A stretch of DNA of 64,000 bases from assembly GCA_051893475.1 (NCBI GenBank), contig JBJFHH010000027.1, forward strand, positions 1,526 to 65,525, in the 5' to 3' direction. Within the stretch, counting starts at the first letter, position 1, and every line of letters starts with the position of its first letter. Shown here in pieces: positions 11,644 through 44,525 of this stretch. A program made the translations under genes and the position numbers. The notes under the pieces were generated by a model. It was given only the letters and a program-made list of their open reading frames with translations. It ran no database searches and was not told the DNA's origin. The stretch comes from Bacillus sp. (in: firmicutes). GTDB taxonomy: Bacteria; Bacillota; Bacilli; Bacillales; DSM-1321.

Positions 11644-11832
11644 TTAAACGCGTTCAACTTTACCAGATTTTAATGCTCTAGCAGAAACATATACGCGTTT
11701 TGGTTTACCATCTACTAAAATACGAACTTTTTGAAGGTTTGCACCCCAAGTACGTTTGTTAGCGTTCATAGCGTGAGAACGAGTGTTACCAGAACGAGTT
11801 CTTCTTCCCGTAATTACACATTTGCGTGCCAT
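11644..11832 (-). CDS. rpmB: 50S ribosomal protein L28
   Basis: MARKCVITG...[20 protein letters not shown]...[10 protein letters not shown]. Confidence 0.97.
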
Positions 11833-11934: not shown

Positions 11935-12084
11935 TAGTATATCTTCAACCTTTCAAGAAAAAAACCTTGACATATGAATTGACTTATTGCTTTATAATAA
12001 AATGGAGAAAAACTTTTAAAAGTTTTATTGTTATAGTAAAATGTTTGTAGTCAAAATGTATTTTTCCAAAAGGGGGAAAAACAA

Positions 12085-12447
12085 ATGTCCATTGAAATCA
12101 ATACGAAATACGGACAAATTGATATATCCAATGATGTTATTGCTACAATTGCGGGTGGTGCTGCGGTAGATTGCTACGGTATTGTCGGCATGGCGAGCAA
12201 GAAACAACTGAAAGACGGAATTACCGAGATCTTAAGAAAAGAAAACTTCACTAAGGGTGTTATTGTGCGTCAAGAAGAAGATGCAATCAATATTGATATG
12301 TACATTATTGTCAGCTACGGTACGAAAATATCTGAAGTTGCTCATAATGTTCAGTCGAAAGTGAAATATACCCTGGACAAAACGGTCGGTTTAGCAGTTG
12401 ATTCCGTTAATATTTATGTACAGGGAGTTCGCGTGACGAACCCTTAG
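12085..12447 (+). CDS. yloU: Asp23/Gls24 family protein YloU
   Basis: ISNDVIATIAGGAAVDCYGIVGMASK; upstream of the DAK2 gene. Confidence 0.9.
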   Translation: MSIEINTKYGQIDISNDVIATIAGGAAVDCYGIVGMASKKQLKDGITEILRKENFTKGVIVRQEEDAINIDMYIIVSYGTKISEVAHNVQSKVKYTLDKTVGLAVDSVNIYVQGVRVTNP

Positions 12448-17980: not shown

Positions 17981-18167
17981 TTGTCCAGCTGCAGCGGCCA
18001 ACCTCTCAAGGTCATAAGCCGATCCGTCCGGAAGGTAAAGAGCAACCTTCCAGCCGGCTTGTCTTATGCTGGTCGAGGGCTCTCAGGATGAGAGTCACAG
18101 CGACGTTGCTACAGGACGTAGCGTTCTTAGTCGCTGTTCATCAATAACGGGCCGCTTCCGCATTTCT
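17981..18167. repeat. GC-rich structured intergenic repeat (Bacillaceae REP/MITE-like) between recG and fapR
   Basis: Nested inverted repeats AGCGGCC/GGCCGCT, CATAAG/CTTATG, GGAAGGT/ACCTTCC; flanked by TTTTCTAA and TTTCTTAA. Resembles from memory a widespread Bacillus intergenic repeat. Confidence 0.7.
18079..18140 (-). ncRNA. Bacillaceae-1-like RNA motif nested in the repeat
   Basis: On the minus strand, two hairpins have loops GUCCU (gctac/gtagc stem, extended by ACAGCGAC/GTCGCTGT) and AUCCU (ctctc/gagag stem). Twin RUCCU loops are the defining feature of Bacillaceae-1. Confidence 0.65.
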
Positions 18168-27785: not shown

Positions 27786-27858
27786 TTACAAGGAATTCAC
27801 CTTGACATCCATAACTGATGCTTGTAAACTATGAAATGTAAAGGTGTTTTACTTAACA
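27786..27858 (+). promoter_or_regulatory. ylxM-ffh sigma-A promoter with two palindromic TGTNAAG-N8-CTTNACA boxes
   Basis: TTGACA(27802)-N17-TAAACT(27825); boxes at 27786-27807 and 27837-27858. Confidence 0.75.
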
Positions 27859-27873
27859 TAAGGGGGAGGCAAC

Positions 27874-28194
27874 ATGACGCTTGAAAAAACAACGCGAATG
27901 AATTATCTGTATGATTTTTATCAATCGTTGTTAACAAAAAAACAGCAAAGCTACATGGCGCTCTATTATTTAGATGATTTCTCCCTTGGTGAAATTGCCG
28001 AGGAATATGATGTAAGCAGGCAAGCAGTATACGATAACATTAAAAGAACAGAAGCAATGTTGGAGGAATACGAGACAAAGCTTCTATTATTTGAAAAGTT
28101 TCAACAGCGAAGCGCGCTTATTCAAAGGCTGAAGGAGGAAGAACTTTCATCTTCTGCCTTGGAAATCGTTGCTGAGCTTGAGAGATTAGATTAG
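27874..28194 (+). CDS. ylxM: UPF0122 putative DNA-binding protein YlxM (sigma-70 region 4-like HTH)
   Basis: [25 protein letters not shown]...[12 protein letters not shown]; immediately upstream of ffh. Confidence 0.93.
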
Positions 28195-28206: not shown

Positions 28207-29547
28207 ATGGCATTTGAAGGATTAGCCGACCGACTGCAAGGCACGATACAAAAGATTCGTGGCAAAGGAAAAGTAAATGAATCCGATGTAAAAGAAATGA
28301 TGCGTGAAGTGCGTCTTGCTCTTTTAGAGGCGGATGTAAACTTTAAGGTTGTTAAGGATTTTGTAAAACGCGTGAGCGAACGCGCAGTAGGTCAAGAAGT
28401 GCTTAAAAGCTTAACCCCTGGTCAGCAGGTAATTAAAGTCGTACAAGAAGAATTGACAGCGTTAATGGGGGGAGAGCAAAGCAAAATTGCTGTTGCTAAT
28501 CGTCCGCCGACGGTCATTCTGATGGTAGGTCTTCAAGGTGCCGGTAAAACGACCACAACTGGTAAGCTTGCAAATCTGCTGCGAAAGAAATATAATCGTA
28601 AGCCGTTATTAGTTGCTGCTGATATTTACCGACCAGCGGCAATCAAACAGTTAGAGACTTTAGGGAAACAGCTGGATATGCCTGTATTCTCTTTAGGCGA
28701 TCAAGTGAGCCCTGTCGAAATCGCCAAGCAGGCTATTGCAAAGGCGAAGGAAGAGCATTATGATTATGTTCTGATTGATACAGCCGGTCGTCTTCATATT
28801 GATGAAGCACTAATGACGGAATTGGAAGATGTTAAGGAAGTTGCCAAACCGGATGAAATATTCTTGGTTGTAGACAGCATGACCGGACAAAGTGCCGTTG
28901 ATGTTGCAGAAAGCTTCAATAATCAGCTTGGGCTTACGGGTGTTGTTTTAACAAAGCTTGATGGCGATACACGTGGCGGTGCCGCGCTTTCCATCCGTGC
29001 AGTGACAAACACTCCTATTAAATTCGTAGGTATGGGCGAGAAGCTTGATGCACTTGAGGTATTCCATCCTGAGCGTATGGCTTCCCGTATTCTTGGTATG
29101 GGTGATGTGCTGACATTAATTGAAAAAGCACAATCTAACGTCGATCATGAAAAAGCAAAAGAGCTTGAGAAAAAATTCCGTACACAATCATTTACGTTTG
29201 ATGATTTCTTAGAGCAGCTTGGTCAAGTTCGTAATATGGGACCATTGGACGATCTAATAAAAATGTTACCTGGTGCTAACAAAATGAAAGGCTTGAACAA
29301 CATTTCCATTGACGAAAAGCAAATTGGTCATGTTGAAGCAATCATTCAATCAATGACGAAGGCAGAAAAGGATCATCCAGAGATCATTAATGCCAGTCGA
29401 CGTAAAAGAATTGCAAAAGGAAGTGGTACTTCGATTCAAGAGGTTAACCGACTTTTGAAGCAATTTGATGAGATGAAAAAGATGATGAAGCAGATGACTT
29501 CTATGCAAAAAGGCAAGAAAAAAGGCTTCAAACTACCTTTCATGTAA
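28207..29547 (+). CDS. ffh: Signal recognition particle protein Ffh
   Basis: GLQGAGKTTT, DTAGR, DGDTRGG, RILGMGD, Met-rich M domain. Confidence 0.98.
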   Translation: MAFEGLADRLQGTIQKIRGKGKVNESDVKEMMREVRLALLEADVNFKVVKDFVKRVSERAVGQEVLKSLTPGQQVIKVVQEELTALMGGEQSKIAVANRPPTVILMVGLQGAGKTTTTGKLANLLRKKYNRKPLLVAADIYRPAAIKQLETLGKQLDMPVFSLGDQVSPVEIAKQAIAKAKEEHYDYVLIDTAGRLHIDEALMTELEDVKEVAKPDEIFLVVDSMTGQSAVDVAESFNNQLGLTGVVLTKLDGDTRGGAALSIRAVTNTPIKFVGMGEKLDALEVFHPERMASRILGMGDVLTLIEKAQSNVDHEKAKELEKKFRTQSFTFDDFLEQLGQVRNMGPLDDLIKMLPGANKMKGLNNISIDEKQIGHVEAIIQSMTKAEKDHPEIINASRRKRIAKGSGTSIQEVNRLLKQFDEMKKMMKQMTSMQKGKKKGFKLPFM

Positions 29548-29559
29548 GGTTTTTTACAC

Positions 29560-29605
29560 TGTTAAGAAAAAATCCTTTACAAACTATAAATAACTTTGAT
29601 AATAT
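29560..29605 (+). promoter_or_regulatory. rpsP promoter with overlapping palindromic box
   Basis: TTTACA(29576)...TGnTAATAT(29600); box TGTTAAG-N8-CTTTACA at 29560-29581. Confidence 0.6.
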
Positions 29606-29645: not shown

Positions 29646-29918
29646 ATGGCAGTAAAAATTCGTTTAAAACGTATGGGAGCAAAAAAATCTCCTTTCTATC
29701 GTATTGTAGTAGCTGATTCTCGTTCACCACGTGATGGACGTTACATCGAAGTAGTAGGAACTTACAACCCAGTTGCTCAACCAGCAAAAGTTGAAATCAA
29801 CGAAGAGCTTGCTCTTAAATGGTTACAAGACGGTGCAAAACCATCTGATACAGTTCGTAACCTGCTTTCTGCTCAAGGCATTATGGAAAAATTCCACAAT
29901 GCAAAAAACAGCAAATAA
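29646..29918 (+). CDS. rpsP: 30S ribosomal protein S16
   Basis: [32 protein letters not shown]. Confidence 0.98.
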
Positions 29919-29928
29919 TATCGGTTGA

Positions 29929-30162
29929 ATGATGAGACAACTCATTCATACGATTGTAACGTCACTTGTCGATCATCCCGAGGCTGTTGAAATTACAGCT
30001 AAGGAAGATGATCAGACGATTACTTACACTTTATCGGTCCATAAGGATGATATGGGAAAAGTGATCGGCAAGCAAGGGCGTGTAGCTAAGGCGATTCGGA
30101 CTGTAATTTATGCAGCAGGATCTACACAGCAAAAAAAAATCTATCTAGAGATTTCCGAATAG
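29929..30162 (+). CDS. khpA: KH-domain RNA-binding protein KhpA (YlqC)
   Basis: DMGKVIGKQGRVAKAIR GxxG KH motif; follows rpsP. Confidence 0.92.
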   Translation: MMRQLIHTIVTSLVDHPEAVEITAKEDDQTITYTLSVHKDDMGKVIGKQGRVAKAIRTVIYAAGSTQQKKIYLEISE

Positions 30163-30186
30163 GAGGGCTAATACCCCTCCTTTTTT
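30161..30186 (+). terminator. Terminator after khpA
   Basis: AGGAGGG...CCCTCCT followed by a T-tract. Confidence 0.7.
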
Positions 30187-30294
30187 GGTATCATAAAAAG
30201 AAAATGGGATGCATCACAGAGCTTCGCGTACATGATACAAGATACATGATACATATGCCATATTGAGATACAATAGGGCTAGGAGGAGCTTAAA

Positions 30295-30681
30295 ATGAGG
30301 ATTCTTCAAACCGTAAATGTAAATCAGGTATTAACAGAAAACAGCAAAAATCAGTTGATTGAACAATATGCTCAGCAATCCGCGCAATTCCAGAAGGAAA
30401 TAGAGCAGTTGAAATTCGAAATGAAAAAGCTGGCCAAAACGAAAAAAATTCAGCCTGTCAGCTTGCAGTCACATTTTGAAAGAGAATTAAATAATCGTGC
30501 GGAAAAGCTGAAGCTGCTCGCATTCAAATTGGAGCAATTAGAAAGATTGCCGATTGGCAGCGAGCTAAAGGAACGTGAGGTTCAGTCCATTGTCGACGTC
30601 GAAGTCGGAGATGATTGGAAGGAACTGACCAAAGTGAAAACCATCGTTGTGACAGATGGAAAAGTAACAGAAATACGTTAG
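30295..30681 (+). CDS. ylqD: YlqD family protein
   Basis: [10 protein letters not shown]...[23 protein letters not shown]...DGKVTEIR; between khpA and rimM. Confidence 0.88.
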
Positions 30682-30692
30682 AGGTGTCGTAC

Positions 30693-31208
30693 TTGGAAAA
30701 ATGGTTTAATGTAGGTAAAATTGTCAATACGCATGGCATCAAAGGGGAAGTTCGTGTCATTTCGAGAACGGACTTCGCCGATGAGCGCTATAAAGTCGGA
30801 AATTCATTATTCTTGTTTCAAGGAACAAATAATGCGCCGATGGAACTGAAAATCACTTCACACCGCAAACATAAAAATTTTGATTTGCTGACGTTTGAAG
30901 GCTATTACAATGTGAATCAGGTGGAGTCGTTCAAAGAGGGTGTTTTAAAGGTGCCTGAGTCGTATTTAACGGACTTGGATGAAGGCGAGTTTTATTACCA
31001 TCAAATTATCGGCTGCAAGGTTTCTACGACTGCTGGTGAAGAAATAGGCACGATCCGTGAAATATTGACGCCTGGCGCAAATGATGTATGGGTGATTCAA
31101 GCAAAAAAAGGAAAAGATATCTTAATTCCGTACATTGAGGATGTTGTCAAGGAAATCGATGTTCAACAGAAAACGATTATCATTGAACCGATGGAAGGGC
31201 TGCTGTAA
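30693..31208 (+). CDS. rimM: Ribosome maturation factor RimM
   Basis: [29 protein letters not shown]; TTG start after GAGGTG. Confidence 0.96.
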
Positions 31209-31942
31209 TGAAAATTGATGTATTAACGTTGTTTCCGGAAATGTTCACCGGTGTATTTGGCTCATCAATTTTAAAAAAAGCGGAAGAAAAGCAAGCTGCT
31301 TCCTATAATGTTGTCAATTTCCGCGAGTTTTCCGATAATAAGCATGGAACGGTTGACGATTATCCATACGGCGGCGGTGCCGGGATGGTTTTGAAGGCGC
31401 AGCCGATTTTTTCTGCAGTCGAGCATTTGCAGGAGCGAAGTGAAAAGAAGCCTCGTGTCATTCTTTTATGCCCGCAAGGAGAGCGCTATACGCAACGTAA
31501 GGCCGAAGAATTGGCAAAGGAAGATCACTTGATTTTTGTTTGCGGACATTATGAAGGCTACGACGAACGAATTCGCGAGCATGTCGTAACGGATGAAATC
31601 TCACTTGGTGATTATGTCTTGACCGGTGGAGAGCTTGGAGCAATGGTCATTATCGACAGTGTGGTTCGATTATTGCCGGGTGTACTCGGGAATGAAGATT
31701 CGCCAATCAAAGACTCTTATTCTTCAGGTTTGCTGGAACATCCTCATTACACGCGTCCGTATGATTTCAGAGGCTATAAGGTGCCTGATACATTAATGTC
31801 GGGCAATCATAAGCTGATTGAGGAATGGCGAATGAAGGAGAGTTTGAGAAGAACGTGGCAGCGCAGACCGGACTTGCTTGAACATATTGAGCTAACGCCT
31901 CAAGAAAAAAAATGGCTGGAAGAAATTATTTCTGAAGAATAG
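31208..31942 (+). CDS. trmD: tRNA (guanine-37-N1)-methyltransferase
   Basis: [33 protein letters not shown]. Confidence 0.98.
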
Positions 31943-31945
31943 CTA

Positions 31946-31974
31946 TTGCAATGACCTATTTTTTATGTTACTAT
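31946..31974 (+). promoter_or_regulatory. rplS sigma-A promoter
   Basis: TTGCAA-N17-TACTAT with TG extension. Confidence 0.65.
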
Positions 31975-32007
31975 ACTTTTTGTGGTTCAGAGAGAGTATC
32001 TCACTGA

Positions 32008-32427
<420 letters not shown>

Positions 32428-43094: not shown

Positions 43095-43153
43095 TGGACA
43101 AAACCTGAATATTAACGTTATAATGGCTCTTTGTTAAGGTATGTTACTTAACA
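43095..43153 (+). promoter_or_regulatory. trmFO promoter with perfect palindromic box near +1
   Basis: TGGACA-N18-TATAAT(43119); TGTTAAG-N8-CTTAACA at 43132-43153. Confidence 0.65.
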
Positions 43154-43217: not shown

Positions 43218-44525
43218 ATGACGAACTTAACAGTAAATGTAATTGGAGCTGGTCTTGCTGGCAGTGAAGCGGCATGGCAGTTAGCAAATAGAGGGATTAA
43301 AGTTAATCTGTACGAAATGAGACCTGTCAAAATGACACCTGCTCATCATACAAGCCAATTCGCTGAATTAGTGTGCAGCAATTCATTGCGCGCGAATACA
43401 TTGACGAATGCTGTTGGTGTGTTAAAGGAAGAAATGAGACAACTGGACTCGCTTATTATGAAGGCTGCAGATGAATGCTCGGTACCAGCTGGTGGCGCTT
43501 TAGCAGTAGACCGTCATGAATTTGCCGGAAAGATTACTGAAACATTAAAGAACCATGAAAATGTGACAATTGTGAACGAAGAAGTCACATCTATTCCGGA
43601 AGGCATCACAATAATTGCATCTGGTCCGCTGACAAGTCCGGAGCTTTCGAAAAAAGTGCAAGAGCTTACTGGTGAGGATCATTTGTATTTCTATGATGCT
43701 GCTGCTCCGATTATCGAAAAGGATAGTATCGATTTCGATAAAGTATATGTGAAGTCAAGATATGATAAGGGAGAAGCTGCCTATATCAATTGTCCGATGA
43801 ATGAAGAAGAGTTTAATGCTTTTTATGAGGCATTAATTTCAGCGGAAACAGTTCCTTTAAAAGAATTTGAAAAGGAAATCTTCTTTGAAGGCTGCATGCC
43901 GATTGAAGTAATGGCATCAAGAGGCAAGAAAACAATGCTGTTCGGCCCGTTAAAGCCGGTAGGATTGGAAGACCCTAAAACAGGTAAACGCCCATATGCG
44001 GTTATTCAATTGCGTCAGGATGATGCGGCTGGAACGCTTTACAATCTTGTAGGTTTCCAAACTCATTTGAAATGGGGCGCACAAAAAGAAGTATTGCGAC
44101 TGATTCCAGGACTTGAAAACGCCGAAATAATACGATACGGCGTTATGCATCGAAACACATTTATCAATTCTCCAAAAGTATTAAAAGCAACTTATCAGCT
44201 GAAAGAGCAGCCGTCGTTATTCTTTGCCGGTCAAATGACAGGCGTTGAAGGATATGTTGAGAGTGCTGCATCGGGATTGATTGCAGGTATTAATGCTGCG
44301 CGTCTTGCTGGCGGTGAGGAGCCAATCGAGTTTCCTGCTGAAACAGCGATTGGAAGCATGGCAAAGTATATCACCACTACCAATGCAAAAAACTTCCAGC
44401 CGATGAATGCAAACTTCGGATTATTCCCGGAATTGCCGGAAAAAATCAGAGGCAAAAAAGAGCGCAACGAACAGCATGCTAAAAGAGCATTAGATACAAT
44501 TCAGAACTTTGTGAAAAATATATAA
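43218..44525 (+). CDS. trmFO: Methylenetetrahydrofolate-tRNA-(uracil-54)-methyltransferase TrmFO (Gid)
   Basis: [35 protein letters not shown]. Confidence 0.97.

Follow-up and report, generated by a model that had tools for sequence, protein, structure and literature searches.

The ylxM-ffh promoter of Bacillus sp. is bracketed by two copies of a 22-bp palindrome whose half-sites resemble the -35 element TTNACA, and the same box recurs before other genes, which raises the question of which protein reads it and which operon it controls. The window, that is, the whole stretch of DNA that was analysed, had a length of 64,000 nt and corresponded to positions 1,526-65,525 of the forward strand of contig JBJFHH010000027.1 (GenBank GCA_051893475.1, an assembly of 3.03 Mb that was 83% complete).

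Five copies of the box and their promoters

A preliminary description of the window had reported five boxes, all of which were found again, and 19 of the 22 positions were identical between the boxes at 27837 and 43132, as it had claimed. The boxes, with their deviations from the pattern TGTNAAG-N8-CTTNACA, and the genes and promoters around them were as follows:

11644-11832, minus strand, rpmB
11951..11972, unstranded, box between the divergent rpmB and yloU (1 mismatch; Bacillales-level copy)
12085-12447, plus strand, yloU
27786..27807, unstranded, secondary box, overlapping the -35 of P1 (ylxM); score 14.9 bits, with 2 mismatches to the pattern
27802..27830, plus strand, predicted sigma-A promoter P1 of ylxM-ffh-rpsP (TTGACA-17-TAAACT)
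27837..27858, unstranded, main box (exact match), downstream of the -10 and upstream of the ribosome-binding site, at the predicted +1
27874..28194, plus strand, ylxM, predicted to encode the binder of the box, a UPF0122 protein whose helix-turn-helix is sigma-4-like (NF045758 and PF04297 above cut-off)
28207..29547, plus strand, ffh, SRP protein (TIGR00959)
29560..29581, unstranded, exact box over the -35 of P2, the promoter of rpsP
29576..29605, plus strand, predicted promoter P2 of rpsP (TTTACA-16-GATAAT, or TTTACA-18-TAATAT with TG)
29646..29918, plus strand, rpsP (S16), first gene of the predicted core target operon (TIGR00002)
29929..32427, plus strand, remainder of the S16 operon: KH-domain gene, ylqD, rimM, trmD, rplS (Pfam YlqD, RimM, TrmD, L19)
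32018-32064, plus strand, Rfam L19 leader before rplS
43095-43124, predicted trmFO promoter (TGGACA-18-TATAAT), the -10 of which is followed by box 43132
43132..43153, unstranded, sporadic copy of the box, exact here, at the start site predicted for trmFO
43218-44525, trmFO (TIGR00137)

The KH gene was assigned by its position in the B. velezensis record (synteny), rpmB by sequence and synteny, and yloU by profile. No Rfam family was found over any of the five boxes; elsewhere in the window, a Bacillaceae-1 RNA (Rfam) was located at 18080-18146 on the minus strand, upstream of fapR.

In the whole 3.03 Mb assembly, exact sites with the N8 spacer appeared only at 27837, 29560 and 43132, while every other spacer from 0 to 30 gave 0-1 exact sites each. 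With up to three mismatches allowed, the window held 37 sites vs. 34.1 expected by chance, so that only tight matches were counted. As the consensus had been derived from these same five sites, the scan that the preliminary description had proposed was carried out with a position matrix derived from 105 sites outside this genome, which placed the five boxes at ranks 1, 2, 3, 4 and 7 genome-wide; a total of four sites exceeded 17 bits, compared to 0-3 with ten column-shuffled matrices. The column counts of the 105 sites gave the refined consensus TGTHAAG-N8-CTTDACA, the centre of which was 87% A/T vs. 64% in the flanks, and variants with an N7 spacer also occurred. Other intergenic near-matches of genome G000 were located outside the window, at C202:10316, C216:674 and C52:4543 (14-16 bits) and at C294:60095 (1 mismatch). 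Moreover, the boxes at 27837 and 29560 were inverted with respect to each other, with 19/22 positions identical to the reverse complement and 13/22 in direct orientation, a pattern repeated in the relatives.

The position of the boxes relative to the promoters was then considered. The bracketing of the ylxM-ffh promoter, with box 27786 over the -35 and box 27837 at the predicted +1, was borne out by the hexamers TTGACA-17-TAAACT at 27802-27830. Among the 105 matrix sites, 89 fitted either overlap with the -35 or a start-site position (start sites being predicted), the box following a complete promoter in 64 and its right arm coinciding with the -35 in 32. Such alternation between the -35 and the +1 is the usual behaviour of repressor sites. 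The claim that all copies occupy repressor-like positions was upheld by promoter geometry for 27786, 27837, 29560 and 43132 but not for 11951, where the TTGACA at 11967 had no -10 hexamer at 16-18 nt, so that a repressor position was not supported. The centre of the latter box lay ~62 nt upstream of the predicted rpmB start (TTGCAT-17-TACATT with TG), a distance typical of activators; this copy may therefore not repress, and it may serve either of the neighbouring genes. In B. subtilis, a promoter P1 before ylxM and a promoter P2 before rpsP are documented in the corresponding passages of PMC10100781.

Conservation of the box and its link with rpsP

The boxes were real and deeply conserved. 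At the order level and closer, an exact box was present at ylxM in 40 of 41 genomes; the copy at the +1 (27837 type) reached at least 17 bits in 30/30 relatives' loci, the copy over the -35 (27786 type, N7 or N8 spacer) was found in 23/30, genome G000 included, and the rpsP box (29560 type) reached at least 17 bits in all 14 of the relatives' loci that extended to rpsP. Furthermore, B. velezensis presented boxes at ylxM, rpsP and yloU. Across Bacillota, ylxM was detected in 134 of 141 genomes, and 80 of these 134 loci were fetched for counting the boxes upstream: 55 had an exact N8 box and 74 had one with at most one mismatch, while none of the other spacers tried (2 to 20) appeared in more than two of the 80. 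An exact box also preceded ylxM in Fusobacterium vincentii. A dyad with a fixed spacer was thus conserved in orthologous promoters, as taken to indicate the operator of a dimeric repressor.

In the 80 Bacillota loci, ylxM, ffh and rpsP were adjacent, and a second box before rpsP was found in only one. A class-level sample of 40 out of 130 loci, scored at a mark of 13 bits, comprised 19 loci with a box at ylxM only, nine with both boxes, three with a box at rpsP only, four with neither (two of which scored 12.3 and 12.7 bits) and five with rpsP located elsewhere. In these last five, the box was at rpsP (three exact N8 and two N7, read by eye). Likewise, L. monocytogenes, S. aureus (12.7 bits) and L. 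fermentum had the box at rpsP and not at ylxM, and in Streptococcus-like genomes rpsP had a box with the N7 spacer and ylxM had none; the ylxM-ffh box was therefore absent from Listeria, S. aureus, L. fermentum and Streptococcus-like genomes, as it was from mycoplasmas.

The mollicute phylum followed the same placement. Of its 71 genomes, 65 had ylxM above the cut-off, and in 53 of those the S16 match was preceded, at 34-112 nt, by an exact box, the remaining 12 having a box with 1-2 mismatches at the same place before rpsP, while no exact box was found within 400 nt before ylxM in any of the 65. Among the exact sites listed for this phylum, 54 out of 60 preceded S16, and four mycoplasma genomes had one exact box apiece, at rpsP. 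In agreement with this, 16 of 17 rpsP loci titled as mycoplasmas had an exact box and the other one had a single mismatch, while none of 59 non-mycoplasma rpsP upstream regions, mostly from Gastranaerophilales, was within one mismatch of it. In M. hyorhinis and M. cynos, the leader of ftsY-ylxM had no box. The rpsP upstream regions of M. hyopneumoniae (L150) and of G353 (L326), the latter without ylxM beside ftsY, showed a long poly-A run and no box. In addition, several sequences of the plasmid collection, NZ_LR214949.1, NZ_LR214986.1 and NZ_CP083716.1 among others, were chromosome pieces labelled as plasmids.

The other copies were more restricted. The rpmB/yloU box reached at least 14 bits in 23/30 Bacillales relatives; in a wider sample, it was present in two of 30 genomes (vs. 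none of 177 background windows) and was discarded as a phylum-wide target on that count. The trmFO box reached at least 17 bits in 3/29 genomes, G000 included, and its right arm was broken in the nearest relative, which led to its rejection as a core target in favour of a sporadic recruit. An additional exact box was shared by three genomes of the genus (G009, L039 1501-1522; G001; G005) between an aminotransferase-like and an MFS-transporter-like ORF, and might mark an extra target.

Overall, the placement of the boxes suggests that their constant target is the S16 operon rather than ylxM-ffh. The repression proposed initially, of YlxM's own SRP operon and of translation genes, was thus sustained in part: the comparisons point to an operator linked to YlxM, with rpsP and rpmB/yloU as conserved carriers, but the site at ylxM-ffh was lineage-dependent and that at trmFO sporadic.

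YlxM as the candidate regulator

The helix-turn-helix of the sigma-4 type attributed to YlxM was confirmed by profile, model (pLDDT 95.5) and fold matches. The protein scored 137 bits against PF04297 (cut-off 22.7) and 115.9 against NF045758 (cut-off 80), and its model was all-helical, with 1XSV and 1S7O as the best fold matches and a weak match to DNA-bound KorA. A half-site that mimics a -35 would fit such a fold. Residues R49, Q50 and R58 were invariant in 50 YlxM rows, although the conservation of this helix is partly circular, as the rows were picked partly on that motif.

The model of the YlxM homodimer scored 0.72 compared to 0.01 for the best control; its runs shared at least 96% of their contacts, and the pLDDT was 91 or higher. 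The mark that it passed was attained by 20 of 30 solved pairs and by one of 23 single chains. The modelled interface comprised residues 16-19 and 69-106, leaving the helix-turn-helix outside and free. A YlxM homodimer is therefore supported by modelling, although resemblance to 1XSV and 1S7O may account for this result. Many mycoplasma YlxM proteins were ~75-80 aa long (G306 L436, G320 L437, L146, L148) and lacked most of the modelled C-terminal dimer helices, and their genomes kept the exact box. Moreover, the recognition helix was diverged (KKSSIHQH; TRQSVHEH) in G391 (L406), G237 (L444) and G203 (L445), the boxes of which have AGG in place of AAG in their arms; the joint change of helix and arms, seen in two lineages only, is no more than suggestive of recognition. 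In G391, which has the rpsP-trmD-rplS gene order of M. pneumoniae, a symmetric GTTAGG-N8-CCTAAC was found just upstream of the -10 before rpsP, while G237 and G203 had ylxM and no matrix-level box.

The loss of the box in genomes without ylxM, which had been proposed as a check, was indeed observed: in unbiased samples, a box was present in none of the six assessable ylxM-less genomes. Three of these were Bacillota, in which seven of 141 genomes had no ylxM match. Five of the seven were examined (G123 and G156, of the same genus as G087, were left out), and two were dropped as uninformative, G164 because its contig breaks immediately before ffh and G129 because ffh lies 250 nt from the contig end. 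The other three (G041, G087 and G160) kept a promoter TTGAC-17-TATA(C/G)T before ffh and had no site within two mismatches across 4.3 kb of the ftsY-ffh-rpsP locus, G087 presenting one exact match elsewhere in its genome. In the mollicute sample, six genomes had no ylxM above the cut-off; G335, G337 and G353 had ftsY, no ylxM and no box before rpsP, while the draft genome G312 had an exact box at rpsP and neither a ylxM match nor ftsY, and G331 and G377, with one exact box each, could not be scored for ylxM. In particular, ftsY ran directly into ffh in G337 (L334, L337), from which both ylxM and the box were gone, and G338 (L330) and G319 (L331), with the same convergent ftsY-ffh / rpsP-rimM-trmD layout, kept both.

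A second set was preselected for having zero exact boxes (35 genomes, 22 with ylxM), and 20 of them were examined. Seven of the eight genomes with ylxM scored 11.9-24.2 bits before rpsP, the eighth being G391 with its symmetric variant, while all 12 without ylxM scored at most 4.1 bits; no P-value was attached to this difference, since the set was conditioned on the outcome and the kin are not independent. Conversely, 5/5 small genomes with an exact box had ylxM. Owing to the kinship among these genomes, few of the losses of ylxM and the box count as independent.

Taken together, TGTHAAG-N8-CTTDACA is likely to be the operator of YlxM, which is predicted to act as a dimeric repressor and the conserved target of which would be the S16 operon (rpsP, KH gene, rimM, trmD, rplS). 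Three other readings were weighed against this one. It is unlikely that the box is read by another protein co-inherited with YlxM, the role of YlxM being then indirect or that of a cofactor (by way of its SRP function, for instance). The passages of PMC6721554 on M. pneumoniae do report neither a specific ChIP-seq peak of YlxM nor any gene changed upon its overexpression, those of PMC8546722 report binding of the S. mutans YlxM to Ffh and scRNA, which would open such an indirect route, and G312 has the box at rpsP without a ylxM match; however, ylxM-less genomes that keep ftsY and ffh lose the box, G337 differs in this from G338 and G319 despite the common gene order, and a dominant-negative ylxM allele, designed on a DNA-binding alignment according to PMC6721554, de-represses the operon just as the knock-out does.

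A hairpin in the RNA of the leader or of a read-through transcript, serving as terminator, attenuator or processing site and possibly with 27837 and 29560 pairing across ylxM-ffh, would agree with the inverse complementarity of these two boxes, with the RNase Y cut described for the ffh-rpsP gap of B. subtilis in PMC10100781 and with positions 4 and 19 being complementary in 55/105 sites (37.9 when shuffled), but this excess vanished once the -35 arms were removed (20/50 vs. 17.9) and positions 8 and 15 showed no covariation. Moreover, the two best sites of the window folded at only -1.9 and -1.1 kcal/mol, a T-rich tail followed only 7/105 sites, the sites whose right arm is the -35 lie upstream of their own transcript, and Rfam gave no match, which makes a hairpin very improbable. 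The long-range pairing was rejected, given that no compensatory spacer changes were seen in G022, G036 and G040 (read by eye, with no formal count). As for the palindrome being a by-product of sigma-A, with the TTGACA elements of divergent promoters placed back to back, both arms are TTGACA-like and a minus-strand TTAACA-17-TAATAT at 43132 scores 9/12; nevertheless, the chance of this being the explanation is minimal, as a minus-strand -10 after the left arm was found in 19/105 sites compared to 3-17 at control offsets, neither arm was TTGAC in 40/105, a complete promoter precedes the box in most sites, the box, but not the promoter, is lost from genomes that lack ylxM, and the 59 non-mycoplasma rpsP upstream regions lack it. 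Divergent promoters, which the preliminary description had named as a possible refutation, therefore failed to account for the box.

Proposed control of the S16 operon and known systems

In the sequences, the promoter from which rpsP is transcribed carries one box, either overlapping its -35 or placed at its +1. This is the ylxM promoter in genomes that have ylxM-ffh-rpsP as a single operon, in which YlxM would thereby repress its own gene and ffh as well; if rpsP is relocated or transcribed from a promoter of its own, the box lies at rpsP. Autoregulation of ylxM-ffh would thus most likely be a lineage-dependent consequence of operon layout. The Bacillus sp. genome presents both the ylxM and the rpsP boxes, together with the Bacillales-level rpmB/yloU copy and the sporadic trmFO copy. 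Each YlxM subunit would read one TGTHAAG arm across the A/T-rich spacer of 7-8 bp, and the dimer would block the sigma-A polymerase by occlusion. The leading guess for the inducing signal is the sequestration of YlxM by Ffh/scRNA; in this respect, no box was found at the scRNA promoter in 5/5 genomes, so that titration by Ffh/scRNA drew no support from sequence.

A wider scheme can be put forward tentatively, plausible though less probable than not: YlxM might be an ancient switch coupling SRP and ribosome in Bacillota, mollicutes and Fusobacteria, made with Ffh or FtsY and sequestered by Ffh/scRNA, the free form of which would repress S16, KhpA, RimM, TrmD and L19 and, in Bacillales, control L28 or YloU-FakA. 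If this were true, ribosome assembly would be tuned to protein-targeting capacity. In any case, the box provides a precise site and a named candidate regulator for the rpsP-rimM-trmD-rplS operon across the phylum; a 2024 review states that nothing is known of how this operon is regulated, which makes it a rare case among ribosomal-protein operons (PMC10931766). The near-universal Firmicute protein YlxM, listed as essential in JCVI-syn3A (PMC9483919), would be recast as an SRP helper that is also a predicted transcription factor, and the boxes of B. velezensis at ylxM, rpsP and yloU make Bacillus a likely test bed.

The closest known system is that of M. pneumoniae, and the initial statement that no DNA site was known for YlxM did not hold, since both target and motif were already published for this species (Yus et al. 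2019, PMC6721554). According to the text and tables of that paper, YlxM (MPN424) represses mpn656-660 (rpsP-trmD-rplS-yitT-rbgA), which was up in knock-out and dominant-negative strains (log2 1.26 for rpsP, 1.14 for trmD and 0.84 for rbgA). The protein belongs to the same family (PF04297) and the operon is the same (mpn660 rpsP, mpn659 trmD, mpn658 rplS), so that the surprise of finding YlxM linked to it is tempered. In contrast to that single operon in a single species, with no ChIP peak, a phylum-wide AAG/CTT consensus was obtained here, a distinction drawn from the text and tables of the paper, the published motif being in its Figure 3A. Candidate sites at ylxM-ffh and rpmB/yloU were defined here as well; outside Yus et al. 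2019, no description of the consensus was found in a literature search that covered few subscription papers.

The SRP accessory YlxM of Streptococcus mutans and Bacillus subtilis is of the same family and encoded beside ffh, and its binding to Ffh, scRNA and YneF is described in passages of PMC8546722 and bioRxiv 10.64898/2026.05.13.724699 that mention neither a DNA site nor a regulon. The plasmid repressors of the KorA/TrfB type (PDB 2W7N; PMC2665229, in the parts seen) share the sigma-4-like helix-turn-helix, but KorA is a global plasmid regulator with 17% identity and a different operator. Finally, RNA leaders of ribosomal proteins, such as the L19 leader (RF00556) that is also present in this operon, likewise exert feedback-like control of ribosomal-protein genes; however, these act on the mRNA through a ribosomal protein, whereas YlxM, a non-ribosomal protein, is predicted to act on promoter DNA.
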